From NCBI GenBank assembly GCA_965215195.1, contig CBDCDC010000002.1:1024001-1088000 (forward strand): a stretch of DNA of 64,000 nt, given 5' to 3'. Under the pieces are notes generated by a model, which worked only from the letters and a program-made list of their open reading frames with translations, was not told where the DNA came from and did not search any database. The position numbers were made by a program, and so were the translations under genes. Shown here one piece after another: positions 1 through 13,507 of the stretch (positions within the stretch are counted from its first letter, which is position 1; each line of letters begins with the position of its first letter). This stretch comes from Candidatus Latescibacterota bacterium. GTDB taxonomy: Bacteria; Latescibacterota; UBA2968; UBA8231.

Positions 1-1
1 C

Positions 2-928
2 CACCTCTTCGCCCCGCCTAAGCCAATAAAGCATCCCCCATAAAACGGCAACACATAGCAACATCCCCAACAGTCTGCCCCAGCGTTTTCGTTTTAAGCG
101 CGGCTTACTCTGAACAGCTTCCCCCTCGCCAACAGCAGCCGCAGCCCCTTCCGTGTCCTCGGCCGGCGCGTACAACAAGACGGTCGTATTGTCCTGCTGG
201 GGATGCTCGGCCGCTTCCACCGCTTGGATAAGAGCCGCAACACTATCCTCCAAGGGCGCGTCTTGCGTTTCTTGGAGGATGGCCGCGATCGCTGGATCGC
301 TGAGGGTCATCAAACCATCGCTCGCCAACAGCAGCCGGTCCCCTTGCTCGACCGCCACCGGCTGGGACGACACGTCAATCAGATGGATGGCATCGCCCAT
401 GACCGCTGACCGCAGCGAATGCCGACTTGAATCCTGCGCGGCTTCCTCTGCGGTCATGCGCCCGGTGGCCACCAAGTCCGCCAGCACCGGTGCCATCGAG
501 TGGTCGGCATTCAAGCGGCTCAATTGCCCCTCGTGGAACAACCACAACGGCGAGTCGCCCACGCTGATCCAGTGCAGCCCTTCGCTTGCAACAACCGCCG
601 CAACCAAGGTCGAACCCATGCTGTCGAGTGCGGGATTTTCGGCAATGGCCGCAGCCATGGCTTCATTAGCCTCTTGGAGACAGGCCCGCAGCCGATCGAC
701 GATGGGCCCCGAAGCCTGCGGATACGCCGCGACAAAGGTCTTGCTCAACAGGCCACTGGCCGTTGCGCCGCCCACGTGGCCGCCCATGCCATCGGCGACC
801 ACCAACATGGTGTGCTCGCGGCCGTCGAGGCCGAGGTCGCGCCCATCCAGCAGGCCGTAATCATCCTCTTGATAGGCCCGCTGGCCGGGAATTTGCCGGG
901 CGGCAAAGCGCCCGTCTAATGCGTTCAT
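2..928 (-). CDS. PP2C-family Ser/Thr phosphatase with C-terminal transmembrane segment; runs off the left edge
   Basis: Not in the ORF track because it is open at the edge. Translated by hand from ATG 928 (ATGA overlap with the upstream stop): RAYQEDD, VVADGMGGHVGG, MGSTLV, SVGDSPL, LNADHS, LLASDGL, QQDNTT, then hydrophobic LLGMLLCVAVLWGMLYW. Confidence 0.93.
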   Translation of the reverse strand, partial: MNALDGRFAARQIPGQRAYQEDDYGLLDGRDLGLDGREHTMLVVADGMGGHVGGATASGLLSKTFVAAYPQASGPIVDRLRACLQEANEAMAAAIAENPALDSMGSTLVAAVVASEGLHWISVGDSPLWLFHEGQLSRLNADHSMAPVLADLVATGRMTAEEAAQDSSRHSLRSAVMGDAIHLIDVSSQPVAVEQGDRLLLASDGLMTLSDPAIAAILQETQDAPLEDSVAALIQAVEAAEHPQQDNTTVLLYAPAEDTEGAAAAVGEGEAVQSKPRLKRKRWGRLLGMLLCVAVLWGMLYWLRRGEEV

Positions 929-1578
929 TGCGCCTCGCTTGCTTCTGTATCCTGCCAATCAAACTCGGCACCGCACAGGGGCACGAAGCGAAGAACCGTA
1001 TGGCCGATACAGATGTGACTCAGGGCCGGCAACTCAGCCGGTGTGAGCACGGGCTGGTCCCCGAGATACGTCAGATTCTTGCCGCCGCCGTGCTGCACGT
1101 AAAACCTCCGGCCGCGCGGATCGTACGTGACAACGGCATGGCCATTGCGCGAAATCTGATCGTCGCCAAAATCGAGCTTGATGCGGTCGGTGGCTCCGCG
1201 TCCAATCGAATTAGAGCCATACCCCAACCGCACGGCTCGCCCCTTGCCCGGCCCCTCCACAACCACCAGCCACCCCACAACCGGATCATCCATGCCGCGA
1301 TCCGCTGCGGCGCGCTCCTGCCGGCGCTCCTCGTCTTCTCGCCGCGGCCGCCCTCCCACCAAGCGCGTCCGCTCCTTCTCGTCGACATTGGCCGGCGCAC
1401 GGCTTTCGCCCATTGGCTGGGTGGGCGCATCTAAACGCCCGGCACCGGCGGGTTGCTCGCCATCCGGTGGTGCCGGCGGCAACGGCCTGTGGGCTCTGTC
1501 CGTTGGTTTGGTATCCTCGTTCCGCTTCTCGGTTTTCTCTTCAATGATTTTGCCATCGGGGACGCGATAAACAGGCAT
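925..1578 (-). CDS. FHA domain protein with Pro/charged disordered N-terminus
   Basis: C-terminal PVVGWLVVVEGPGKG..SIGRG..DDQISRNGHAVV..KNLTYL matches the FHA GR / SRxxH pattern. Confidence 0.88.
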   Translation of the reverse strand: MPVYRVPDGKIIEEKTEKRNEDTKPTDRAHRPLPPAPPDGEQPAGAGRLDAPTQPMGESRAPANVDEKERTRLVGGRPRREDEERRQERAAADRGMDDPVVGWLVVVEGPGKGRAVRLGYGSNSIGRGATDRIKLDFGDDQISRNGHAVVTYDPRGRRFYVQHGGGKNLTYLGDQPVLTPAELPALSHICIGHTVLRFVPLCGAEFDWQDTEASEAQ

Positions 1579-1611
1579 GGTGCCCTCCTATTTTTGGGTT
1601 GTTCCAGCAAC

Positions 1612-2397
1612 TTACTTTTCGTAGAGCCGGTTGATTAAGTTGTCTAGACAGTATTGGCCGGATTGGTTCAAGGCCATCTCTTCCCGGCTTTGTGCAATGT
1701 GCAGCGCAAACACCAGCAGGGCCGACTGGACCAACGCCAGCAAGGTCGTGTAAAACGCAACGCCCAGCCGACCGGTGATCTCCGCCAGCAAGGTCGGGTC
1801 CTGTGGGTCTTCAATGTTGGCCGCATAATCCAAGGCAAACGCAATGCCCACCACCGTGCCGATAAAGCCCAACGTTGGCATCAGCCATACGAGATAGCGC
1901 AACATCGCGTATTTGAGTTCGAGCTCGTGTTGGAACAATTCGAGGGACGAATTCAACAACGAGTTGGCTTGATTGACCGAGTGGCTCCCCTGAAATTGTA
2001 GAATGCAGCGCATGATCAGACGCTGTAAATAAAAGGGGCGCTCCTCGGCCTTGGGCCGCACCGTTTGATAAAAGGACCCCAAATCCCGCGCCCGCAACAT
2101 GACCGCATCGTCTTCCGGCAGATAGCGTTTCGCCACCTGCTCCATTTCGAGCTGGGCTTGGTTAAACCGCACCCAGAGTTCACCGCAGCCAAGCCAAAAC
2201 ATGAGCCACATGACGTTTTGGATGGTAAAAGGATAGGGGAAATTCTCGGTGTGGCGATCTAGCAGGAAAGCACCGGCCGCCGAATCGGGATGACCGAAAA
2301 TAAGGCTCATAATCGCGATGGATACGACGCCTCCTAGCAGACTGATGACGCTTGCTTTTAGGCGTTGCTCTAGCTCTACCCCTCGCCCGTTTGCCAT
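1612..2397 (-). CDS. MotA/TolQ/ExbB proton-channel family protein
   Basis: TM motifs MPTLGFIGTVVG and LGVAFYTTLLAL. Start placed at MANGRG just after the upstream stop (track start 2424). Confidence 0.88.
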   Translation of the reverse strand: MANGRGVELEQRLKASVISLLGGVVSIAIMSLIFGHPDSAAGAFLLDRHTENFPYPFTIQNVMWLMFWLGCGELWVRFNQAQLEMEQVAKRYLPEDDAVMLRARDLGSFYQTVRPKAEERPFYLQRLIMRCILQFQGSHSVNQANSLLNSSLELFQHELELKYAMLRYLVWLMPTLGFIGTVVGIAFALDYAANIEDPQDPTLLAEITGRLGVAFYTTLLALVQSALLVFALHIAQSREEMALNQSGQYCLDNLINRLYEK

Positions 2398-2398
2398 G

Positions 2399-2782
2399 TC
2401 AATCCTCCTCGCCCATGATCTCACCCGTATCTACGTTGCGCCGCACGGGACCTACGGGCAGGCTGTCCGGCTGCGTGGGTTTGCCGCCTTCTGAACGGCG
2501 CTCCTCTTGCGCGGCCAGCGCGATGAGTGCGGGTGCGGTCGTCTGGTAATGACCGAGTAAAATCGCCTCTGTCGGGCTTATAAACTCCTGCCGGATGCGT
2601 CTCCACTCGCCGTTCCGCGCCACATAACTACCCCCGCTGCTAGCGCAATCCGTCAGGTAGTACGAGCCGCTTGGCGTCGCAAGTAGCTCGGCGTGGACGC
2701 GAGAAACCGAATCATCGTCAATCTGGATGTCCACGCCGGGGCTGCGCCCAATTCGATACACCGAAAACGTCGATTTGTTCAT
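2399..2782 (-). CDS. Small FHA domain protein
   Basis: IGRSPGVDIQIDDDSVSRVHAEL..YYLTD. Confidence 0.9.
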   Translation of the reverse strand: MNKSTFSVYRIGRSPGVDIQIDDDSVSRVHAELLATPSGSYYLTDCASSGGSYVARNGEWRRIRQEFISPTEAILLGHYQTTAPALIALAAQEERRSEGGKPTQPDSLPVGPVRRNVDTGEIMGEED

Positions 2783-2783
2783 G

Positions 2784-3776
2784 TCAACCCGGCTTGGCCC
2801 CTATGAGATAGCCGTTGTTTTGTTCGGTTAGCTGCACCAGAAAATCAATAAATTTCCGGTCTGTCACGTAATTGCCAACGGCTACGGCATGTATGGGTAT
2901 GTTCCGCCTGTTCTCCGCCGTTACAGCCCGCACGACCATGTGCCAATCTTCAGAGGGGGCCCCATCGCTCAACAGGACGATCTCTTCGGGGTGCAGTGCA
3001 ATCGCCGCCAGCAAAGCTTCGCGTGTGGGCGTACCGCCATCCACTAATCTCATCCAGTCGTTCACCTGTCCGACAACGCGATCTCGCGTATTCCTTCTTA
3101 CTTGAAAGTACCCTCTATTTTGAGGCCAATAGTGCAACGCCGTCCTCTGGTTTGGGGCGTGAAAACCAATGAGACAGACCTCTATTTCCGCCTTAAAAGC
3201 AGCGAGCATGTCTTGAATGGCCAATGTTATGAACTGGCGATAATCTTGCTTTCCAGGCTGATAAATACTGCCCGACATATCTATGACGAACGCGAACTTT
3301 CTCGCCTTCGTCTTAATGCCTAATAAAACGGTTGTGTCATCTATCTCCTGTTGCAAAGCCTCCACTCGTTTTGCAAGCTGACCTTTTGCTTTCGCCGCTT
3401 CGGCCTTTGCCCGCTCCAGCTCCTGTTGCAAAGCCTCCACCCGTTTTGCAAGCTGACGTTCTGTCTTCGGAGCTCTGGCCTTTGCCCGCTCCAGTTTGGC
3501 TTTCTCCTGTCTTAGCTTGGCTTTTTCCCGTTCCAGCTTAGCCTTCTCCCGCTCTGCTTTGGCCTTTGCCTGCTCTAACTCGGCCTGCGCCTGTTCCTGC
3601 GCCTGTTCCTGCGCCTGTTCCTGCTCGGCCTTTTCCTGTCCCGACAGGTTCAGATTTGGAAAAAAGGGCAGCAGCACTACGGTAATGAGTATGAAAGCGC
3701 CGAGTGCCGAGGCGAACAGATCGAGCGCGGACATGCTAAAGATGTTGAACTCGCGGCTGCGTTTCTTCATGCCCAA
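2784..3776 (-). CDS. Single-TM, coiled-coil, vWA domain protein
   Basis: N-terminal TM MSALDLFASALGAFILITVVLLP; EQAQ/EKAK coiled coil; MIDAS motifs FVIDMSGS, GGTPT, LLSDGAP. Confidence 0.88.
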   Translation of the reverse strand: MGMKKRSREFNIFSMSALDLFASALGAFILITVVLLPFFPNLNLSGQEKAEQEQAQEQAQEQAQAELEQAKAKAEREKAKLEREKAKLRQEKAKLERAKARAPKTERQLAKRVEALQQELERAKAEAAKAKGQLAKRVEALQQEIDDTTVLLGIKTKARKFAFVIDMSGSIYQPGKQDYRQFITLAIQDMLAAFKAEIEVCLIGFHAPNQRTALHYWPQNRGYFQVRRNTRDRVVGQVNDWMRLVDGGTPTREALLAAIALHPEEIVLLSDGAPSEDWHMVVRAVTAENRRNIPIHAVAVGNYVTDRKFIDFLVQLTEQNNGYLIGAKPG

Positions 3777-3782
3777 TACCCT

Positions 3783-5096
3783 CTAAAGTTTGGACGCCAC
3801 GAGCACCAAATCGCCCAGCGCGACTTTGGCACCATAGTCCAGCCGCGCCGGCTCAAAGGGCGACAGGCGCTGTTCGTTCAAAAACGTCCCATTGCTGGAG
3901 TGCAAATCTTCGACATACAATCGATTGCCTTGGGCGGCAATGCGCAGATGCCGTCGAGATACGTTTCCATCGGCGACGACTTCATCGACCAACTCGGGAT
4001 GCCGGCCGATCGAAAGCCCCAAGCGTTGGCCAGCCAAGCGGGCCGGCGACAACTCAATGCAGACGCGGTGGCCACGACCGTCAAAACCAGCCAGCACGAG
4101 GCCGTGCCTTGGGCCTTTTGCAACGGCCCCTACCCCTACGCGCCGACTCATCTGCTGGACGAGTTGGCGCGGCTTGGCCAAGGTCTGCTGGGCGAACTGG
4201 CGCGGCTTCTTTAAGGCCACGACCAAGGCGGCCAAAGCCACACCGCCCAATAGTAGCAGATAGACGATAAATTGATCGCTGGCTTCTTCGGCCTGCTCTC
4301 GCGCTTGTTCGGCCTCGCGCCGCGCCTTTTCCGCTTCGCGCCGCGCCTTCTCGGCCTCACCCGAACTCCCCGTGCCGCCAGCCGCCACACAATCGTCACT
4401 CTCCGCTTGAAAAGCAATGCCGTGGTCGTCCAACAGGTTGGCCAACTCCTCTATGTGCGAAGACCAGTAAATGCCCGCCGCATGGGGCACCCGCGTCACC
4501 CCGCTCGATGGACTGGTAATGACCACGAGCGACGCCTGCGTATTGACGCCGACAGCTCGGCTACAATCATCTAATAAGGGGCCGCCGCTGTTGCCCGGGT
4601 TGGTCGGCGCATTGTGCTGAATAATCCTGAGTTGTTGCGTGTGCCACGCGCCTGAAAAAATCCGCCCAATGACGCCGTCTTGCACGGTCGGGTCGTGCGC
4701 CGGTCTGTTGCGGTCGGCCCCACCGGGATAGCCGATGGACCATACCTTCTGGCCTTTTGTGGCGGGTGCGAGCGACAGCGCGATTGGCGGCAGGGTTATG
4801 TCTGGGATATGGGCGATGGCGAGGTCGAGTTCTGGGGACGTGGCGATTACTTCCACCTCGTACAGGGCGTTGGAGTTTGTCGGGACGGCTTGGATTGAGC
4901 GGGCATTGGCGATGACGTGGACGTTGGTCGCAATATAGCCTTGGTCGTTGATGGCGAATCCAGTGCCGGCACTGGTCTGGGTCACGATGCGCACCACGCT
5001 CTTCTCCAGCGCGTCAAAGTCTGGCGCAGCAACAGCGCGGCCCGGCAGCAGTGCCAGCAGAAAGAAGACGAGACCCCAGCGTCTGGAGCGGTGCAA
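3783..5096 (-). CDS. Signal peptide + trypsin-like serine protease + TM + cytoplasmic FHA
   Basis: GTGFAI, TNVHV (His), DLAI (Asp), PGNSGGPL (Ser); TM FIVYLLLLGGVALAALVVAL; FHA IGRHP..VSRRH..SSNGTFLN. Confidence 0.92.
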   Translation of the reverse strand: MHRSRRWGLVFFLLALLPGRAVAAPDFDALEKSVVRIVTQTSAGTGFAINDQGYIATNVHVIANARSIQAVPTNSNALYEVEVIATSPELDLAIAHIPDITLPPIALSLAPATKGQKVWSIGYPGGADRNRPAHDPTVQDGVIGRIFSGAWHTQQLRIIQHNAPTNPGNSGGPLLDDCSRAVGVNTQASLVVITSPSSGVTRVPHAAGIYWSSHIEELANLLDDHGIAFQAESDDCVAAGGTGSSGEAEKARREAEKARREAEQAREQAEEASDQFIVYLLLLGGVALAALVVALKKPRQFAQQTLAKPRQLVQQMSRRVGVGAVAKGPRHGLVLAGFDGRGHRVCIELSPARLAGQRLGLSIGRHPELVDEVVADGNVSRRHLRIAAQGNRLYVEDLHSSNGTFLNEQRLSPFEPARLDYGAKVALGDLVLVASKL

Positions 5097-5099
5097 TGT

Positions 5100-6725
5100 T
5101 CACTCCTGCACCAAGCGCACGGTAAAAGTGACTGGCCCAATCTCAAGCCGATCATTGTTTTGCAACAGCACCTGTTCGCGGGGGTTGAGCAGGCGTCCGT
5201 TCACCTTGGTGCCATTCAGGGCGTTCAAATCCTCTGCGTAGAGTTGGCCGTCAACACACGCGAGCCGGACGTGTTCGCGGGAGACTTCTTGGTGGTCAAT
5301 GATAAATTCGGCGTTGGCCGGGCTTCTGCCGAGCGTCACCCCGGCGCGATCCCCCAAGGCCAAGGCCGATAGGGTCAAGGCGAAGGGTCGGCCGGTGGGG
5401 TCTTGGCCTTCCAATAGACATCTGAAAGGCGCGGGTTGCGGTGCGTTCGCCGCGGCTTGGTGCGCGGCTTGAGCCGTTTGCTCGGCTTCGCTCACTCGGG
5501 ACTCGGCACTCTGTAATTGCTCCTTTTTGCGCCGTGCGGAAAGCCACCAACCGAGGAGTGCGAGCATCACCAGTCCCGCCCCGGCCGCAAGGCCCCACTG
5601 CAATCGCTGCGCGGCCTTTTCTTGGGCCGCTTGGAGGCTATCGGCTTTGGCTTGGGCCTGCACTTCCGCTGCTTTGAGGCTGTCGGCTTTGGTTTTGGCG
5701 GTCTGGAGGCTGTCGGCCACGGCCTTACTCGCCGAATCAGCCCGCGCCTGCGCCATCTTCAGGCTGTCGGCTTGGGCCTTGGCCGCTTGGAGGCTGTCGG
5801 CCACCGCTTTCTTTGCGGAATCGGCTCGCGCTTTCGCCCGTTCTGCCGCCCGCCGAGCGGCCTTTTCTTTTGCCTCGGCCTTTTTTGCGGCTTCGCTCGC
5901 CGAGTCGGCCTGCGCCTTGGCCTTTTCTGCGGCTTTGCCTACCGAGTCGGCCTGCGCCTTGGCCACCTTGAGGCTGTCGGCGGCTGCTTTTCTAGCGCGT
6001 TCAGCGCGCTCAACCGCACTCAGGCATTTTGCTGCAACCACGGTATGGGCGATTTCTCGCTCTTCGAGCGCCGCTATTATGTCGCCGCTGCGCAAGGCAA
6101 AAATGGTCCCTCTCGGCTTCGCTTTCCGAAACGGCCACGAGCCGCTTTTCGGATCGGGCAGGTTGAGGGCGACGACGTCCCCGCATTCGTTGAACAAGGG
6201 CATGCCAAAGGATTGGGCCGTTATCAAGGCATTGTGTTGCAGCAGGTGCGCCACCGGACGGCCTGCTTTTTTGCCGCGGAGGTCTTGGTACGTGCCAATC
6301 GTCCCGTGAGAAAGCCGAACATCCCCCGCCGCGCCGAACCGCAGCGTCTGCACGGCCCGGCCGACAGCGGCTCCTTGCTCGGACAAGCTGAGGGGCGGCA
6401 AGTTCAAGCCCGGTACGTGCAACAGGGCCAAGTTCAGGGCGCGGCTGGCAAACACCCGCTGCGCCACGACCTCAGCCCCGGTCTTCAGGGACAATACAGT
6501 CAAGCCGTCTGCCTTAGCTGTGAGATGGGCATTCGTCAGCACGTAGCCCTTTTCGTTGACGACAAACCCGCTTCCTTCAACCGCGATTTTGTGATCGTCA
6601 TAAGCGCGCACCCGCACGATGCTTTCAGAAACAGCATCCACATCGATCTGCGCCGAGACCGGGCTTGGGCAAAGGAACCAAGCCACGGCGAAATGCGCGA
6701 TGAAAGGTAGGTATTGTTTGTTCAT
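5100..6725 (-). CDS. Signal peptide + catalytically degenerate trypsin-like domain + ADS-repeat coiled coil + TM + FHA
   Basis: GSGFVV and TNAHL kept, but NLALL replaces DLA and QSFGMPL replaces GNSGGPL. FHA LGRSP..VSREH..LNGTKVN. Start placed at MNKQ. Confidence 0.88.
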   Translation of the reverse strand: MNKQYLPFIAHFAVAWFLCPSPVSAQIDVDAVSESIVRVRAYDDHKIAVEGSGFVVNEKGYVLTNAHLTAKADGLTVLSLKTGAEVVAQRVFASRALNLALLHVPGLNLPPLSLSEQGAAVGRAVQTLRFGAAGDVRLSHGTIGTYQDLRGKKAGRPVAHLLQHNALITAQSFGMPLFNECGDVVALNLPDPKSGSWPFRKAKPRGTIFALRSGDIIAALEEREIAHTVVAAKCLSAVERAERARKAAADSLKVAKAQADSVGKAAEKAKAQADSASEAAKKAEAKEKAARRAAERAKARADSAKKAVADSLQAAKAQADSLKMAQARADSASKAVADSLQTAKTKADSLKAAEVQAQAKADSLQAAQEKAAQRLQWGLAAGAGLVMLALLGWWLSARRKKEQLQSAESRVSEAEQTAQAAHQAAANAPQPAPFRCLLEGQDPTGRPFALTLSALALGDRAGVTLGRSPANAEFIIDHQEVSREHVRLACVDGQLYAEDLNALNGTKVNGRLLNPREQVLLQNNDRLEIGPVTFTVRLVQE

Positions 6726-6878
6726 AACCTGTCCGTGTACGTTCAAACTGGCCGTCAACAGCTAAGTTTCCAGCGCAGTTGCAGGGATTTCTCACTCCGC
6801 TCAGATTGCTATCTGACTATTTGAGACCCTACTCAAAGTGCCTTCTATTCAGATGGCGTTTGCGTAAGGTCCTCTTAT

Positions 6879-7718
6879 TTAAGGTGCCCGAAGCCTCTTT
6901 GTTTTTTTATTTAAGGCTTGGAACAACGGGCTACTGAATTGCTCATGCTCATATATAGCAAAAGACTCTTCTACTCTTTCTTTACCAAGTTTGGCGGATG
7001 CATCTATTTTAATTGACTTTGCCCTCAAGGCAGGAATTAAGTCGGAAATTTTCGAAACTTCGTTGATTCGATCGATTAGATCATTCGTCGGAATGGTAAC
7101 ACTTCCGTTGTCGTCCGTGCGGTAAGTATCTTTGTATCCGAATTGTGGAAAGGAGATAGAGAGGGGATGATTGAGAATCTTTATAGGAGGATCCTGTTTT
7201 ACCGGTGAGGTCTTCCAATCCGTACTTTCTGTCTTTGTACCGCTGTAATACAATAGCAATAAACTCGATACTAAGAAATCTGATCCAACACCAATGAGAA
7301 TCGGCTGTTGATATTTTTCTAAAAACTCTCTGAACTCTGGATCATCTTGTGATACTTCATCCGGATAGAGTGCCATAGACGCAAATACAAGCTCCACCAA
7401 GCCTATTACAAAAATGTTATTGGCCATATTGTCGCCAAAAAGACCGTCGTCCCTCAGTTCCCATTTATATCTCTTAATTGATCGGCGTTTTTCTTGGTAA
7501 TAGGGCTGATATTGCAAACGGAAATTGAGCCCATCACCCTTTGGCGTTGGTGCGAAGGTTAGCTTGACCTCTCTTTTTAAGTCTGTTCGTCGTGTTTCTG
7601 GAGTTGTTCCAACCCAAGACTTTCTCATTGTAGAAGGTAGTAGTAACGAACAACCTGTCAAACTACATGCCATTATGACAATGAGAACCCGACAGTCAAA
7701 CCAATTCAGTTTCATCAT
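6879..7718 (-). CDS. Hypothetical lipoprotein, paralog of 18570..19460
   Basis: Lipobox SLTGC; shares LQYQPYYQE, YRTDDNGS.TIPTNDLIDRINEVSK and PLFQAL with the other copy. Confidence 0.8.
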   Translation of the reverse strand: MMKLNWFDCRVLIVIMACSLTGCSLLLPSTMRKSWVGTTPETRRTDLKREVKLTFAPTPKGDGLNFRLQYQPYYQEKRRSIKRYKWELRDDGLFGDNMANNIFVIGLVELVFASMALYPDEVSQDDPEFREFLEKYQQPILIGVGSDFLVSSLLLLYYSGTKTESTDWKTSPVKQDPPIKILNHPLSISFPQFGYKDTYRTDDNGSVTIPTNDLIDRINEVSKISDLIPALRAKSIKIDASAKLGKERVEESFAIYEHEQFSSPLFQALNKKTKRLRAP

Positions 7719-7837
7719 GATACTTCCTTTGCATTTTAATTGTGCAGCACAGGACATTGGTTCCTAGGCTACAGAGGCTTGGCCATCGGTTATTCCTCCT
7801 CCAGCTTCCATGCACAAGCTCTGCGCTTGGCTCCGCC
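7690..7837. repeat. ~148-bp direct repeat, copy 1
   Basis: Matches 8637..8784 with 2 mismatches seen; spans a gene end, an intergenic region and the next gene start. Confidence 0.95.
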
Positions 7838-8665
7838 CTTTTTATACATCTCGCCCAAGTTGGTCTGAGCGCTGGCATGTCCTTGTTCCGCCGCCTTGCG
7901 ATACCACTTCACAGCCGCCCCAGAGTCCCGCGCCACACCCCGGCCATAATAATACATCAAGCCCAAGTTGTACTGAGCGGTGTCATCTCCTTGTTCCGCC
8001 GCTTTGCGATACCACTTCACAGCCGCCCCATGGTCCCGCGCCACACCCCAGCCATTTGAATACATAAAGCCCAAGTTGTTCTGAGCGCTGGCATGTCCTT
8101 GTTCCGCCGCTTTGCGATACCACTTCACAGCCGCCCCAGAGTCCCACTCCACACCCCGGCCATTTTCATACATCAAGCCCAAGTTGTACTGAGCGGTGTC
8201 ATCTCCTTGTTCCGCCGCCTTGCGATACCACTTCACAGCCGCCCCAGAGTCCCGCGCCACACCCCAGCCATTTTCATACATAAAGCCCAAGTTGGTCTGA
8301 GCGCTGGCATGTCCTTGTTCCGCCGCTTTGCGATACCACTTCATAGCCGCCCCAGAGTCCCACGCCACACCCCAGCCATTTTCATACATCAAGCCCAAGT
8401 TGTACTGAGCGGTGTCATCTCCTTGTTCCGCCGCCTTGCGATACCACTTCACAGCCGCCCCATGGTCCCGCGCCACACCCCAGCCATTTTTATACATCAC
8501 GCCCAAGTTGTACTGACCCCAAGCATGTCCTTGTTCCGCCGCTTTGCGATACCACTTCACAGCCGCCCCATGGTCCCGCGCCACACCCCAGCCATTTTCA
8601 TACATCAAGCCCAAGTTGAACTGAGCGCTGGCATCTCGACAGTCAAACCAATTCAGTTTCATCAT
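7790..8665 (-). CDS. Sel1-like repeat protein (about 7 tandem 36-aa repeats)
   Basis: AQxNLGxMYENGWGVARDxGAAVKWYRKAAEQG repeated at a 108-bp period. Confidence 0.93.
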   Translation of the reverse strand: MMKLNWFDCRDASAQFNLGLMYENGWGVARDHGAAVKWYRKAAEQGHAWGQYNLGVMYKNGWGVARDHGAAVKWYRKAAEQGDDTAQYNLGLMYENGWGVAWDSGAAMKWYRKAAEQGHASAQTNLGFMYENGWGVARDSGAAVKWYRKAAEQGDDTAQYNLGLMYENGRGVEWDSGAAVKWYRKAAEQGHASAQNNLGFMYSNGWGVARDHGAAVKWYRKAAEQGDDTAQYNLGLMYYYGRGVARDSGAAVKWYRKAAEQGHASAQTNLGEMYKKGGAKRRACAWKLEEE

Positions 8666-8784
8666 GATACTTCCTTTGCATTTTAATTGTGCAGCACAGG
8701 ACATTGGTTCCTAGGCTACAGAGGCTTGGCCATCGGTTATTCCTCCTCCAGCTTCCATGCACGAGCTCTGCGCTTGGCTTCGCC
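8637..8784. repeat. ~148-bp direct repeat, copy 2
   Basis: Matches 7690..7837. Confidence 0.95.
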
Positions 8785-11136
8785 AATTTGAGCGCTCGTA
8801 ATCTTCCTTGAAACGTTCCTGCGGTATTTCTCCTTTTCACCTCCTGCTTCGGCGAGGATGTACCACATACACGCCGTCACATAGTCCCGCCTCACCCCCC
8901 GACCTTTCTCATACATCCAGCCCAGGTTGATCTGACCACTGGCATGTCCTTGTTCCGCCGCCTTGCGATACCACTTGACGGCTTCCCTATCGTCTTGCGC
9001 CACCCCCTGACCCCGCCTATACATCCAGCCCAGGTTGTTCTGACCCAAAGCATGTCCTTGTTCCGCCGCCTTGCGATACCACTTGACGGCTTCCCTATCG
9101 TCTTGCGCCACCCCCCGACCTTTCTCATACATCCAGCCCAGGTTGATCTGAGCACTGGCATCTCCTTGTTCCGCCGCCTTGCGATACCACTTGACGGCTT
9201 CCCTATCGTCTTGCGCCACCCCCTGACCCCGCCTATACATCACGCCCAAGTTTCTCTGACCCAAAGCATGTCCTTGTTCCGCCGCCTTGCGATACCACTT
9301 GACGGCTTCCCTATCGTCTTGCGCCACCCCCTGACCTTTCTCATACATCACGCCCAGGTTGTTCTGACCCAAAGCATGTCCTTGTTCCGCCGCCTTGCGA
9401 TACCACTTCACAGCCGTCACATAGTCCCGCGTCACACCCCGGCCCTTTGCATACATCTCGCCTAGGTTGAACTGACCCCAAGCATCTCCTTGTTCAGCTT
9501 TATCCCTTACGAACCCCGCCTGCAGCTCGGAGATGGTTGTACTCGGGGTTTCGTCGTCGGCGATCTTGATGTCCGTCTGCGCCGAACCCCCAGACGCCGC
9601 CGCCTGCACATCGTAATCGAAATCTCGAAAACTTGCGTGTATGGTATAGCTTCCGGTAGATGACTCATAGCTCTCTACTTTGATGTAATAAGTCCCCGGA
9701 TTAGGCGACTGTTCTATTTTGAAATTGTTGCCGCTCCCATCATCGGAATCGCGTACTAAGGTGGCACCAGAACTATTTTGTAGTATCCCCTCTGTATCGA
9801 GAATACCTGTCGTATAGACCGTCAACACACCCGACCTACGTACCTGTACCTTGAAATAATCTACATCACTACCGGGTTTTATCTGCCCCGAGAGTGAATC
9901 CCCCAACGCAAGACTCGTCGCACCAGACCTAGTACCGCTATGATTATCTTTCCGGGCCGGTGGTGGCGACGGACGCTGAACAACAACTCTTTGTTCTCGA
10001 AAACTTGCGTGAATGGTATAGCTTCCGGTATGTGAGCGATAGCTCTCTACTTTGACGTAATAGGTCCCCGAATTAAGCGACTGTTCTATTTTGAAATTTT
10101 TGCCCCTTCCACCATCGTCAGCGCGTGTCAAGGTGGCACCAGAACTATTTTGTAGTATCCCCTCTGTATCGAGACTACCTGTCGTATAGACCGTCAACAC
10201 ACCCGACTTGCGTACCTGCATCTTGAAATAATCTACATCACTACCGGGTTTTATCTGCCCCGAGCGTGAATCCCCCAACGCAAGACTCGTCGCACCAGAC
10301 CTAGTACCGCTATGATCATCGACAACTGACCGCTCTGGACTTTGTTCTCGAAAACTTGCGTAAATGGTATAGCTTCCAGTAGATGACTTATAGCTCTCTA
10401 CTTTGACGTAATAAGTACCCGCACTCACGGACCGGTCTATTTTGAAATTCTTGCCCCTTCCACCATCGTAATCGAGTACCAAGGTGGCACCAGAATTATC
10501 TTGTAGTGTCCCCCTTGTATCGAGATTGCCGGTCGTAGTCGTATAGACCGTCAGCACACCTGACTTGCGTATCTGCATCTTGAAATAATCTACATCACTA
10601 CCGGGTTTTATCTGCCCCGAGCGTGAATCCCCCAACGCAAGACTCGTCGCACCAGACCTAGTACCGCTATGATTATCTTTCCGGGCCGGTGGTGGCGACG
10701 GACGCTGAACAAAAACTGGTTTGTCTGGTTTGTCTTTTATCGAATATACCTCAACGGATCCAAGCCCCGGAGGACTGATTAGCTTCAAAATGGCTAATAA
10801 GAGCACAGGTGCAAGGGCAATCAACACCCCCTTCTCTTTTCGCCCGTAGATATTCATCTCTCGGTACCCTTGAATCGCTGCGCCAATTACAAGTCCCCAA
10901 AAAGCCCAAACCACAACGGGGGAAACGTCGAATCCGGGATAAAATATCTTATCGAGAGCGATAAGTATATTAGTGGAGATGAATTCTAATCCAGTATATA
11001 AACCGAATAAGACATAGGCAGGGATCGAAAAAATAACAAAACCAATAAAAGAAAGTATAAAAGCAGCGACTGCAATGATTATTAGAATCAAGACACAGCC
11101 AACACCAATACCAACAGCTTGGTCCGACATAACCAA
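8737..11136 (-). CDS. Membrane-anchored protein with three PPC-like beta-sandwich repeats and about 6 Sel1 repeats
   Basis: Hydrophobic N-terminus; 3x D.HSGTRSGATSLALGDS.SGQIKPGSDVDYFK..GTYY.KV; then Sel1 repeats AVKWYRKAAEQG. Confidence 0.9.
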   Translation of the reverse strand: MVMSDQAVGIGVGCVLILIIIAVAAFILSFIGFVIFSIPAYVLFGLYTGLEFISTNILIALDKIFYPGFDVSPVVVWAFWGLVIGAAIQGYREMNIYGRKEKGVLIALAPVLLLAILKLISPPGLGSVEVYSIKDKPDKPVFVQRPSPPPARKDNHSGTRSGATSLALGDSRSGQIKPGSDVDYFKMQIRKSGVLTVYTTTTGNLDTRGTLQDNSGATLVLDYDGGRGKNFKIDRSVSAGTYYVKVESYKSSTGSYTIYASFREQSPERSVVDDHSGTRSGATSLALGDSRSGQIKPGSDVDYFKMQVRKSGVLTVYTTGSLDTEGILQNSSGATLTRADDGGRGKNFKIEQSLNSGTYYVKVESYRSHTGSYTIHASFREQRVVVQRPSPPPARKDNHSGTRSGATSLALGDSLSGQIKPGSDVDYFKVQVRRSGVLTVYTTGILDTEGILQNSSGATLVRDSDDGSGNNFKIEQSPNPGTYYIKVESYESSTGSYTIHASFRDFDYDVQAAASGGSAQTDIKIADDETPSTTISELQAGFVRDKAEQGDAWGQFNLGEMYAKGRGVTRDYVTAVKWYRKAAEQGHALGQNNLGVMYEKGQGVAQDDREAVKWYRKAAEQGHALGQRNLGVMYRRGQGVAQDDREAVKWYRKAAEQGDASAQINLGWMYEKGRGVAQDDREAVKWYRKAAEQGHALGQNNLGWMYRRGQGVAQDDREAVKWYRKAAEQGHASGQINLGWMYEKGRGVRRDYVTACMWYILAEAGGEKEKYRRNVSRKITSAQIGEAKRRARAWKLEEE

Positions 11137-11241: not shown

Positions 11242-12131
11242 TCAATAGACGTGTGAATCTGCCAATGACCTATCTCGAATGAGAAAATAAAAAACAAAAC
11301 TGGCGATTTTTAAGAGTGCAGTGGTATAAGAAATCAAAAAAATACTTAGCGAATAACTGATGAGAAATTGGAATTGACTTCCCATTAAATAGTACGTGGC
11401 GATTGTTGAGCCGGCAGAGGTCGCGACAAAAAAGAAAAAACAAGCCCCAACTTCCCACTTGTTATCCAACATAAGGGCTCTGGTAAGCCGATAGATTGTG
11501 CCGACCTGATATTCTCTCTCAACTACGATAAACTTCATCCCAAGCGACAGAAAACCAGCGTACATGATAAGTAAAGGTAGAATGCACAGACTAATCACAG
11601 TCCATGCAAGTATGGGGGAACTCAGCGTACGAGAAAAAAAAACAAAAATGGCGAAATTATAGCGACTATAAGCCCGGAGAGGAGATAAAATGAGCCTTTG
11701 AAAATTAAAGCAGGCTTAAAATACATCCGACCATAAGAAATTACCTGTGTGGAACGATAGCTATTTTTTAGGAGTAAGTCGCGAATGATCGCAGCCAGTC
11801 CTGTATCGTTATAAAAGGCGATCAGAAACGAACCTATCAAGAGACTGGCTACAATAATTAGAGATTTCGGCTGTTCAAAATTGAGATATTCCATGCGATG
11901 AAGCACACGCAACAATTCTTCAAAATGCCCCACCTGAACATCTTCAAGTGCATGTCGAAAGGCATTGATATTCACACTGTCTGCAATCATTTCGTACAAT
12001 GTCTTATCTGTAAATTGTTCAATCAGGTCAATAATTTTGCCAAACACCACGGAAATTAGCGCAATGCCGATGAGTTTCCGATTGCGATTCATCACGATAA
12101 ACCCTCGTTTGAGGGAAACTGCCCAAATCAT
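11242..12131 (-). pseudogene. Multi-TM membrane protein split by a frameshift at an A9 tract (ORFs 11622..12131 and 11242..11598)
   Basis: One extra base in the A9 run at 11634..11642 joins ..SPFLFFF to SRTLSSPILAWTVISLCILPLL in a single frame. Confidence 0.6.
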
Positions 12132-13507
12132 CCAGATCTCCTTTTTCGAAAGAAGAAAAAGATACCTGTACCTAAAGCAGCTAAAGCAGCAAATACAACA
12201 ACAAAACTAAAGCCTGCAAAGCGAGGTACATAAACCTGCCACTCTAACATCGGCCATTCGAACCATCTGATCCACCTCAAATCGTTCAAATTCACAAACC
12301 TGGCACTCACTAACCAGCTAAACCCGGAAACTTCAATTAATATCAAGCGTGCAACAAGGGCAATCGCCCCTATTGAAACACCACTAATGGCAACCCGGCG
12401 GATAGATTTCTGAATGGGATAATCAACGTAGCAGGAAATCGGCACTTCCAAATTACCGCCATTCGTCTTGATAATGAGTTCGGTCTTATGAGTTTGTTTG
12501 GCCGTAAGGGAGCTTGCGTCAAGTTCGACAGTTACGGCAGCACTCCTTCTGATCCGGGTCGATGAAATCTGAAGCCCCGGCATTTTGCTTGCCAAGTTGA
12601 CATCGCCGTGGAGAAATCCACGTCCAGTATTCTTAATTTCCAAACGGATGGTTTTTTGGGTTTCGTTATCAATCTTGCCGAACTTGATGCTGGTATGACT
12701 CGTTTCTGGCTCAGGTGAACCAATACGCGGGTCAAGTTTTTGAACAAACATCTCCAAACCGATGTCCCGCTCATCCGCGTAGCCGCTGGTGACTTTCTCC
12801 GCGGTCTTCGCTAACTCCCCTTGATTGACGTACTCAAGCCAGAGCGCGATAAATCCATTGAATAGCAAGGTTTTTGCCTGTGGCCAATTCTGGTCAATCA
12901 ACTTCGCCAGTTGTTGAGGCGTTCCGGCTTCACTTCCATTAAGCTGTATCTTCTCTTTAAGAATTTGCACCATCCCCCTAAGCCCGAAATCCTGATCGTT
13001 GGGATATTTTTTGACAACAGCCCGAGCTGCTTTGGCAAAGAACAACTCGCCAGCTCCATCAAGAGCTGTCGCAAGGGAGCCGTCATAGAGGACATCTTTA
13101 GTACGGTCAGAATGCCTTATCATCAATGTTGCCAACTTTGAGATGCTGGTGGCTTTGTCGCCGTTAGGGAATGTGGCGATGAGACGTGGCTGTGGGGGAT
13201 CGGGCTGTGGGGGATCGGGCTGTGGGGGATCGGGCTGTGGGGGATCGGGATCGTCTATTTTTTTAATGTGTTCCTTTCGCTTTTCTTCGTCTACCAAGAT
13301 ATCCTTAGCGTCCAATAAGAGTTTCTGGCACTCCTTTTGATCTTTCCCTTTGAAACATTTTTTACTACTGAAATATGGGTTATTTATTCCAGCCGTCGTT
13401 AGATTATAGATCCTCCTAAAAGCATCATGAACGCTCTTTTTGAAAGCCTCCTCGTCTTTTTTTTCGGAATCTTCAATTGAAAGATCCAGTACCTCAAAAT
13501 AGTTCAC
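12128..13507 (-). CDS. Degenerate J-domain-like N-terminus + PPQPD linker + helical region + Ig/BACON-like domain + C-terminal TMs
   Basis: MNYFEVLDL..AFRR..LLLDAKDILVDEEKRKEH resembles J-domain helices I/III/IV but has no HPD. EIKNTGRGFLHG is Ig-like. Two hydrophobic C-terminal segments. Confidence 0.7.
   Translation of the reverse strand: MNYFEVLDLSIEDSEKKDEEAFKKSVHDAFRRIYNLTTAGINNPYFSSKKCFKGKDQKECQKLLLDAKDILVDEEKRKEHIKKIDDPDPPQPDPPQPDPPQPDPPQPRLIATFPNGDKATSISKLATLMIRHSDRTKDVLYDGSLATALDGAGELFFAKAARAVVKKYPNDQDFGLRGMVQILKEKIQLNGSEAGTPQQLAKLIDQNWPQAKTLLFNGFIALWLEYVNQGELAKTAEKVTSGYADERDIGLEMFVQKLDPRIGSPEPETSHTSIKFGKIDNETQKTIRLEIKNTGRGFLHGDVNLASKMPGLQISSTRIRRSAAVTVELDASSLTAKQTHKTELIIKTNGGNLEVPISCYVDYPIQKSIRRVAISGVSIGAIALVARLILIEVSGFSWLVSARFVNLNDLRWIRWFEWPMLEWQVYVPRFAGFSFVVVFAALAALGTGIFFFFRKRRSG
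13187..13252. repeat. 15-bp tandem repeat encoding (DPPQP)x4
   Basis: ggctgtgggggatcg repeated about 4 times. Confidence 0.9.

Follow-up and report, generated by a model that had tools for sequence, protein, structure and literature searches.

A conserved gene cluster of Latescibacterota that combines a predicted TolQ-like motor with phosphothreonine signaling and membrane-anchored protease-FHA proteins

A stretch of 64,000 nucleotides from the genome of a Candidatus Latescibacterota bacterium (assembly GCA_965215195.1, contig CBDCDC010000002.1, G000:C2:1024001-1088000; host genome 6.13 Mb, 60% G+C), hereafter called the window, begins with a group of genes that raises the question of whether a motor-type channel, phosphothreonine signaling proteins and membrane-anchored proteases can be parts of the same machine. 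Positions 1-6758 contain seven co-directional open reading frames (ORFs), all on the minus strand and read from 6758/6725 to 1, which are referred to as Q1 to Q7 in reading order; two further genes, Q8 and Q9, follow to the left of the window (Table 1). The first-pass annotation had described seven tightly packed co-directional genes with FHA, trypsin, vWA, MotA-like and PP2C domains, a description that was confirmed by the ORF coordinates and by Pfam, and had suggested a search for a Ser/Thr kinase to the left of position 1, where two Hanks-type kinase genes are located directly after the PP2C gene. On balance, we lean towards the view that the nine genes encode one machine, an ion-driven 5:2 motor that would be controlled by receptor kinases and coupled to membrane-bound protease and pseudo-protease receptors.

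The channel protein Q5 matched the Pfam family MotA_ExbB (PF01618) with 40.5 bits against a cut-off of 22.9 bits (E = 2.8e-10). All matches listed by Foldseek for its AlphaFold2 model (predicted local distance difference test score, pLDDT, of 83.5) were TolQ, ExbB, PomA, MotA or ZorA chains, with a probability of 1.00. These structural matches were weak, with E-values from 2.7e-3 upward and query TM-scores (TMq) of 0.35-0.56; TolQ ranked first (TMq 0.51-0.56; 9avi/8vlw), and ZorA (8vvn) was among them. By sequence, the similarity of Q5 to the solved chains was marginal (E of about 0.07). In an alignment of 15 sequences with identities down to 42%, residues P174, T175, G177, G180 and T181 as well as T217 and T218 were invariant, and they align with the P-x-x-G-x-x-G-T motif in transmembrane (TM) helix 3 and the T-T motif in TM4 of PomA. 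We take these threonine, proline and glycine residues to line the ion path. The model also contains an extra helix pair between TM1 and the cytoplasmic domain. Because the Pfam score exceeds the cut-off, the structural matches are to motor proteins and the TM3 and TM4 motifs align, Q5 is identified, from sequence and model, as the A subunit of a 5:2 motor of the MotA/TolQ/ExbB family. A complex prediction with three copies of Q5 and the small FHA protein Q4 gave scores of 0.26 and 0.11 against a mark of 0.32, which speaks neither for nor against a contact between them. A 384-amino acid (aa) protein, P0018, was considered as a Rosetta-stone fusion of FHA and channel proteins and rejected as a frameshift artefact, in which 36 FHA residues are followed by an out-of-frame run into the channel ORF.

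The TM-vWA protein Q3 had been regarded as a separate part in the first-pass annotation, and our analysis makes it the likely partner of the channel. The first 45 residues are the best conserved part of a family that averages only 22% identity, and they include the helix S-A-L-D-L-F-A-S-A-L-G-A-F, in which Asp19 is invariant in 38 of 38 relatives. The AlphaFold2 model of Q3 (pLDDT 86.6) consists of a helix at residues 13-38, with Asp19 placed at its cytoplasmic end, helices at 46-98 and 104-147, and an alpha/beta domain at 160-327. Because the N-terminal helix, here called the trans-pore helix (TPH), carries this invariant Asp, Q3 is probably the inner, MotB/TolR-equivalent subunit of the TolQ-like channel. 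Its N-terminus gave weak ZorB/MotB matches (E = 1.4e-4, PADLOC profiles), and no match to an ExbD, TolR or MotB family was obtained with Pfam for any of the nine cluster genes. The match of Q3 to the Pfam vWA family was just below the cut-off (22 versus 23.8 bits), and vWA was matched at E <= 0.01 in 19 of its 38 relatives; with Foldseek, the model matched the vWA domains of ITIH1, CLCA1 and integrin I domains, with E-values down to 5.6e-9. The metal ion-dependent adhesion site (MIDAS) is complete in Q3 (D166-x-S-x-S, T249, D271).

The association of these proteins extends to many other genomes. We examined 114 loci, 34 from genomes and 80 from metagenomes, which were annotated with profiles built from the domains of the window itself; the channel proteins of the metagenome loci are 51-91% identical. 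Co-occurrence was counted up to 9 kb from the channel gene, in those loci whose flanks on each side measured 6 kb or more (31 genome loci) or 3 kb or more (35 metagenome loci). A TPH protein was found near the channel gene in 29 of the genome loci and 28 of the metagenome loci, a kinase in 28 and 25, a PP2C in 26 and 23, and a trypsin domain in 26 (as trypsin-FHA protein) and 18, respectively. The small FHA gene, counted with a strict spacing rule, was present in 28/35 metagenome loci, and in 87/114 loci overall it is the gene immediately upstream of the channel gene, many of the others being truncated at this point. The TPH-vWA gene is single in the window and in 31/31 genome loci, none of which has two TPH genes, and two were found in 8/35 metagenome loci. 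Gene order differs between lineages while the component set persists, and this shuffling argues for selection on the gene set and not for an inherited order. One subtype without protease and PP2C has the order kinase - small FHA - channel - TPH - FHA - TPH, and another has an FHA-Sel1 protein instead. The constant core consists of the small FHA protein, the channel and the TPH protein, usually with a kinase.

The genes that flank the clusters differ from locus to locus and encode ordinary metabolic and transport proteins (75 proteins from 14 loci); no type VI secretion system (T6SS) family was found beside the cluster in the window or among these 75 proteins. The earlier proposal of one apparatus that joins phosphothreonine signaling to a MotA/TolQ-like channel is therefore supported by a component set that is co-conserved over 114 loci in changing contexts. 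Homologs scattered without synteny, or placed inside a T6SS or another known system, would have spoken for a different interpretation, and neither pattern was seen: the set is co-conserved, and no T6SS or PADLOC system was recognized. The same data bear on the idea that the cluster is the regulatory arm of a secretion system, with a threonine phosphorylation pathway of the T6SS type or a YscD-like FHA protein of a type III secretion system. Kinase, PP2C, FHA and vWA are also the parts list of PpkA/PppA/Fha1 in Pseudomonas aeruginosa, and the FHA domains of the cluster gave sub-threshold matches to the Pfam family Yop-YscD_cpl, but no secretion-system genes were found within 10 kb in 14 loci, apart from one FliP in L091 only, or beside the cluster in the window, and we consider this explanation close to refuted.

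Both protease-like proteins, Q1 and Q2, were matched by the Pfam families Trypsin_2 (E = 1.5e-16 and 4e-27) and FHA (6.9e-15 and 5.4e-16), with no PDZ match in either protein. Their TM helices were located by hydropathy at residues 390-408 in Q1 and 277-295 in Q2, and the topology of an N-terminal hydrophobic leader, a single TM helix and an FHA domain at the C-terminus is based on a hydropathy scan and on reading of the sequence rather than on a signal-peptide predictor. The sequences of the TM helices are not conserved among the trypsin-FHA proteins. Q1 and Q2 both retain complete GR, SxxH and NGT motifs in their FHA tails, and the same residues are conserved to at least 80% across 75 relatives. 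In Q2, the triad is His-Asp-Ser (HDS) with a GNSGGP motif, and its nearest solved relatives are Deg1, DegP, MucD, HtrA, DegS and AlgW, with E-values down to 3.3e-17. In Q1, the triad columns contain His-Asn-Phe (HNF), and QSFGMP is found in place of GNSGGP. As judged from these residues, Q1 is a dead and Q2 a live protease.

This pairing is not confined to the window. All loci together supplied 83 proteins with a trypsin domain and a length of 380 aa or more, and their alignment to a profile showed 38 HDS triads, 27 HNF triads and 18 other non-catalytic combinations. The HNF/HDS pair is present here and in 20/34 genome loci, and other dead sites (YDY, GGF, NGE, HDF and HDY) are paired with HDS in unrelated metagenome loci. 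A dead copy stands alone in some lineages (HNF alone, KDF, NDH, AGF, ADN), and a live copy stands alone in others. From this triad census we conclude that live/dead pairs arose repeatedly. The suggestion in the first-pass annotation that the apparatus controls periplasmic proteolysis is thus too narrow: Q1 is catalytically dead, trypsin domains occur in just half of the metagenome loci with sufficient flanks, and several lineages have dead copies only. A protease-kinase fusion was observed in L002 (15698-18787), 3 kb downstream of a cluster that is 93% identical to that of the window; this 1029-aa protein combines Trypsin_2 with an intact HDS triad, a Hanks kinase and about seven ankyrin repeats.

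The remaining proteins have the domains of a phosphothreonine signaling circuit. Q4 matched the Pfam FHA family with E = 3.9e-13, and in its family G12, H30, D45 and G51 are invariant, R13 is nearly so, and a C-terminal R-x-x-x-T-G-E-I motif is conserved. The FHA domain of Q6 (E = 9.4e-7) is highly conserved across its class but atypical, and no solved structure was matched by Q6 at E <= 0.01. Members of this class were detected in 75/114 loci and share an N-terminal M-P-V-Y-R-G-P-D-G motif; Thr71, within the acidic motif E-E-E-K-T-R-L-V-G-G-R-R ahead of the FHA domain, is retained by 69 of 76 relatives. In the Esr system, a threonine that lies in a disordered segment ahead of an FHA domain of EsrG1 acts as a switch (PMC13622651), and because Thr71 resembles this arrangement, it may be regarded as the best candidate for a kinase target. 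The phosphatase Q7 matched PP2C_2 (E = 1.9e-12) and SpoIIE in Pfam, has a hydrophobic helix at residues 295-313, and has intact QED, DGMGGH, SDG and DNTT motifs. Q8 and Q9 are paralogous Hanks kinases, in which the GxGGFG, VAIK, HRDIKPGN and DFG motifs are intact.

The C-terminal domains of the kinases are diverse. Among 19 cluster kinases that were scanned across lineages, seven carry Sel1 repeats (two of these also PEGA), two an FGE-sulfatase-like domain, three a right-handed beta-helix (one with PG_binding), two a PDZ domain, and one each WD40, DUF1036 and PEGA alone, while no domain was recognized in the other two. A constant core with diversified kinase sensors would fit a receptor-controlled machine. 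A recurrent second module, transcribed divergently from the motor cluster, was observed on the opposite strand, upstream of the small FHA gene, in the metagenome loci L049, L056, L057, L079, L080, L084 and L096. It consists of a long PP2C (520-610 aa) and an FHA protein of about 770 aa, and L079, L080, L084 and L096 also have a double-FHA protein (176-811 aa; three cut by the locus end); the window does not contain this module.

The host genome contains three complete clusters, at 1.02-1.03 Mb (the window), 2.89 Mb (C2:2887425-2900396) and 4.03 Mb (C2:4021380-4040455), and all three retain every part. Their core proteins are 85-96% identical to each other, the first kinase only 55-82%, and the differences in Q1 and Q3 are concentrated in the coiled-coil stalks. 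Loci with 91-93% identity belong to metagenome-assembled genomes (MAGs) of Latescibacterota. The channel clade was found in 29/151 sampled genomes of the phylum and in 12/22 of the genus, and a search of 400 further genomes from the phylum of the genome that carries L032 gave no match at E <= 1e-30. Outside the phylum, a Thiosymbion MAG has the order small FHA - channel - trypsin-FHA - TPH, and a conjugative megaplasmid of Rhizobium leguminosarum, the sole record in a search of a plasmid collection, has PP2C - small FHA - channel - TPH, with kinase-PDZ genes on the flanks. Channel proteins that are 68-78% identical to Q5 carry the source names SAR86, Pseudohongiella, Gammaproteobacteria and Gemmatimonadaceae, and the identity to those named after the first three suggests horizontal transfer. 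In marine metagenomes, members of the family are widespread. The Rhizobiales/Chelatococcus loci L033 and L034 were considered as support for the signaling wiring and rejected; they represent a different branch, with only the channel, a TPH-coiled-coil protein and TPR/VIT neighbors.

Patchy distribution, three copies in one genome and apparent horizontal transfer are features that would be expected of a defense system against phages or other invaders, in which, as in Zorya, a MotAB-like unit would sense perturbations of the envelope and the kinases, FHA proteins and protease would respond. The weak domain-level PADLOC matches of Q5 to ZorA2 (E = 2.5e-5) and of Q3 to ZorB point in the same direction, as do the variable sensors on a constant core, which are also found in the threat-sensing Esr system of Actinomycetota (PMC13622651). 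However, no system-level PADLOC match was obtained for the seven window proteins, and the cluster contains no nuclease or other Zorya partner (ZorC-G). The long cytoplasmic tail of ZorA is also absent from Q5, which has only 261 residues. Nor is there a defense-island context: housekeeping genes form the flanks, and among 114 flanking proteins of 14 loci PADLOC recovered only four generic domain hits (TPR, mad2, mad3 and 2OG). We therefore regard a role in defense as unlikely.

Returning to the nine-gene machine, we propose that a Q5 pentamer would form the outer ring and a Q3 dimer would be located inside it through its Asp19-bearing N-terminal helix, so that ion flow through Asp19 would drive the motor. 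Instead of a peptidoglycan-binding domain, the periplasmic part of Q3 would consist of the coiled-coil stalk with, as its head, a metal-dependent vWA adhesion domain. The kinases (in the clusters of relatives, receptor kinases whose sensors are Sel1, FGE-sulfatase-like, beta-helix, WD40 or PDZ domains) would phosphorylate threonines, perhaps foremost Thr71 of Q6, and thereby gate assembly or activity. The phosphothreonines would be read by the small FHA protein Q4, by Q6, and by Q1 and Q2 through their cytoplasmic FHA tails, and the membrane-anchored PP2C Q7 would reset the phosphorylation state. Q2 would act as a tethered, active HtrA-like protease and Q1 as its non-catalytic partner, probably only in substrate binding. 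The net effect would be that an envelope or periplasmic cue licenses the force-generating vWA arm and recruits the protease/pseudo-protease pair for envelope remodeling or signaling. A contact between FHA proteins and the motor is plausible because the FHA domain of GltG in Myxococcus, which is located beside a TM helix, has been modeled, together with that helix, in contact with the AglR pentamer at its cytoplasmic face (PMC11761067). A more specific version, which we consider rather speculative, is a mechano-proteolytic sensor-effector, which would form a new functional class of 5:2 motor. In it, a proton-driven vWA arm licensed by diversified receptor kinases would grip an envelope-associated or foreign protein and pull it onto the tethered HtrA-like protease, with the dead paralog as a substrate clamp, in symbiont-host or inter-bacterial conflict; it would be the first ion-driven motor of the stator type known to be switched by Ser/Thr phosphorylation.

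Several observations weigh against this model in its full form. The genome loci belong nearly all to Latescibacterota kin, and their synteny counts are therefore not independent. About half of the more distant loci have no trypsin domain and some have no PP2C, and the model can therefore hold generally only in part. In the FHA domain of Q4, the GR and SxxH motifs are present while GGS replaces NGT, and in that of Q6, which has GR and an extended S-R-N-G-H motif, NGT is replaced by N-L-T. The MIDAS is only partial in the Q3 family: D166 alone is invariant in the 38 sequences, the second position is S or T in 25/38 and the third is S in 24/38, and Thr249 is replaced by Glu in 19. Finally, no conserved cytoplasmic threonine was found on Q5 (15 relatives aligned) or on the tail of Q3 (38 relatives), and the motor itself may for this reason not be a target of phosphorylation.

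This last point could also indicate that two uncoupled modules travel together, namely a TolQ-like/TPH-vWA motor and a kinase/PP2C/FHA circuit that regulates HtrA-like envelope proteases, and subtypes in which the motor, small FHA protein and kinase occur without protease or PP2C (L094, L103, L113 and others) would be consistent with such a separation. The small FHA gene is, however, attached to the channel gene in most loci and is only one nucleotide away from it here; the parts are retained together despite shuffled order and changing flanks, and the three paralogous copies have each kept all of them. Like a role in defense, two independent modules seem to us an improbable explanation.

To our knowledge, motors of the MotA/TolQ/ExbB type have few known tasks (flagellar rotation, TonB-dependent uptake, Tol-Pal, gliding, type IX secretion and Zorya). 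With TolQR, ExbBD, MotAB and PomAB, the cluster shares the Pfam family, the fold, the Pro-Gly-Thr motifs of TM3 and TM4 and the Asp-bearing partner helix. It differs from these motors in that the coiled coil and vWA domain of Q3 replace the periplasmic domain of TolR and ExbD or the OmpA-like domain, and no third subunit similar to TolA or TonB was recognized. The similarity to ZorAB of Zorya consists of a non-flagellar MotAB-like unit in an accessory cluster, together with the weak profile matches and structural matches to ZorA, whereas the peptidoglycan-binding domain of ZorB is absent, as are the ZorA tail and the effectors mentioned above. The protease domain of Q2 belongs to the same HtrA family as those of DegS, AlgW and DegP, and DegS and AlgW are membrane-anchored signal proteases. 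Unlike these, Q2 has no PDZ domain and has a C-terminal anchor, a cytoplasmic FHA domain and a dead paralog as partner.

The closest precedent for the motor core is a prediction from AlphaFold 3 models, in which TolQ-like proteins as pentamers are combined with TPH-vWA proteins as dimers (Williams-Jones et al., Mol Biol Evol 2025; PMC12204202). In the pairs described there, as here, the tolQ-like gene has no tolR or exbD nearby and the TM-tethered vWA protein has a conserved Asp in its helix, for which rotation inside the pentamer was proposed. Those TPH-vWA proteins are mostly heterologous pairs, mainly from Proteobacteria and Verrucomicrobia, whereas the protein described here is single and from Latescibacterota. 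Kinase, PP2C, FHA and protease partners are found here, while in the main text of PMC12204202 the words kinase, phosphatase, PP2C and trypsin do not occur and FHA appears only within the name FhaC; its supplements might show such neighbors.

Gliding was also raised there for the vWA transducers, and a device for surface adhesion or gliding similar to Agl-Glt of Myxococcus, with a vWA adhesin powered by a TolQR-like motor and FHA membrane proteins as the link to a cytoplasmic platform, was considered for our cluster. Both have a motor, a vWA protein (CglB in Myxococcus) and an FHA domain beside a TM helix (GltG) (PMC11761067, PMC9946355). In GltG, however, the FHA domain is N-terminal to the TM helix and the periplasmic part is TonB-like, CglB is a lipoprotein of the outer membrane while the vWA domain here is part of an inner-membrane plug protein, and neither kinase nor PP2C is described for Agl-Glt in the sections of PMC11761067 that concern us. 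As no Glt-like outer-membrane or periplasmic components were found in the cluster or its flanks, and relatives occur in planktonic bacteria of the SAR86 type, according to their source names, we consider a gliding device very unlikely.

Kinase, PP2C, FHA and vWA domains are encoded together in one operon, as here, in PpkA-PppA-Fha1, the TerY-P triad, Deinococcus DRA0331-0334, archaeal ArnA-ArnB and actinobacterial Esr. In the accounts of these modules considered here, none is known to have a channel of the MotA/TolQ type, a vWA protein with a TPH or receptors of the trypsin-FHA kind, and neither MotA nor TolQ appears in the text of the Aravind-lab paper (PMC7159879). A text search of the literature, with subscription journals and supplements outside its scope, found no paper that describes the joint conserved cluster. 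The first-pass statement that no characterized system has this composition thus holds for the cluster as a whole and does not hold for its motor core, which was predicted in 2025 (PMC12204202). A motor core of this kind has been predicted in print, and the signaling parts come from well-known families; what is new in the searched literature is their conserved joint cluster. It would add a motor with an adhesion domain on its inner subunit that is tied to eukaryote-like kinase signaling, which is unseen for 5:2 motors in the searched papers. The Rhizobium leguminosarum carrier is culturable and tractable, which opens the hypothesis to ordinary genetics, and the live/dead protease pair and Thr71 supply precise residues for mutation.

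The coordinates of the cluster genes are summarized in Table 1. The transcription unit comprises nine genes, Q1 to Q9, because the tail of the PP2C gene and the two kinase genes continue to the left of the window; the last 53 codons of Q7 together with Q8 and Q9 occupy G000:C2:1020905-1023999 (about 3.1 kb). The gaps in reading order are 3 nucleotides (nt) for Q1-Q2, 6 nt for Q2-Q3, 1 nt for Q3-Q4, 1 nt for Q4-Q5 (a 26-nt overlap if the GTG start of Q5 is used) and 33 nt for Q5-Q6, followed by an ATGA start/stop overlap of Q6 and Q7, an 8-nt overlap of Q7 and Q8 and a gap of 54 nt between Q8 and Q9. The ATG at 2397 is the likely start of Q5, with GGAGG 6 nt upstream, a position 1 nt past the stop of Q4 and relatives of the same length; ATG 6725 is the probable start of Q1 (541 aa) and ATG 928 that of Q7. 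A scan of positions 6500-7100 of the window for promoters and terminators found none.

Table 1. Positions and predicted features of the nine cluster genes (positions refer to the window, except for Q8 and Q9)
Gene	Position	Strand	Length	Description
Q1	5100..6758	-	552 aa from TTG 6758	exported pseudo-protease / coiled coil / TM / cytoplasmic FHA
Q2	3783..5096	-	437 aa	exported HtrA/DegP-family serine protease / short coiled coil / TM / cytoplasmic FHA
Q3	2784..3776	-	330 aa	trans-pore helix (TPH; Asp19) / coiled-coil stalk / vWA head with DxSxS MIDAS motif
Q4	2399..2782	-	127 aa	small cytoplasmic FHA protein
Q5	1612..2424	-	261 aa from ATG 2397; ORF open from GTG 2424	MotA/TolQ/ExbB-like channel subunit
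Q6	925..1578	-	217 aa	FHA adaptor with disordered N-terminus of ~100 aa and conserved Thr71
Q7	1..958, continues left of window	-	372 aa whole	PP2C phosphatase with C-terminal TM tail
Q8	L001 13483-14847, left of window		454 aa	Ser/Thr kinase-ankyrin protein; Pkinase 1.7e-37, Ank_2 5.7e-17
Q9	L001 11905-13428, left of window		507 aa	Ser/Thr kinase with multi-TM C-terminus; Pkinase 5.7e-37

The three genes past Q9 have no Pfam family, and a recurrent link to the cluster was found only for one of them, a 294-aa ORF just beyond Q9 (L001:10608-11492; G000:C2:1019608-1020492), relatives of which (240-270 bits) adjoin the cluster in L002, L005 and L011. Its N-terminus may resemble Rpn/transposase-like nucleases. 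Further to the right in the window, at 12128-13507 on the minus strand, is a 459-aa ORF that matched no Pfam family; it contains a (P-D-P-P-Q)x4 repeat, and its C-terminal part includes hydrophobic segments.

Immediately upstream of the cluster, at positions 6879-11136 of the window (minus strand), is a stretch of 44-56% G+C, against 60% for the genome, with three ORFs. Two of these, of 292 and 304 aa, have identical first 23 residues, and the 304-aa ORF has seven Sel1 repeats; the third, of 799 aa, has hydrophobic N-terminal segments, three pre-peptidase C-terminal (PPC) repeats and six Sel1 repeats. These genes may belong to the cluster as accessory parts and not be neighbors by chance, because Sel1 repeats recur elsewhere in the motor-kinase system: beside the kinases mentioned above, they are found on a 447-aa FHA protein in L083 and five similar loci and in separate upstream genes in L010 and L047. 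Flanking regions of related clusters in Latescibacterota MAGs (L013:2853-7035, L013:17911-19356 and L047:7251-8948) encode eukaryote-like repeat proteins, with leucine-rich repeat, collagen triple-helix, LDL-receptor class B and Sel1 domains.

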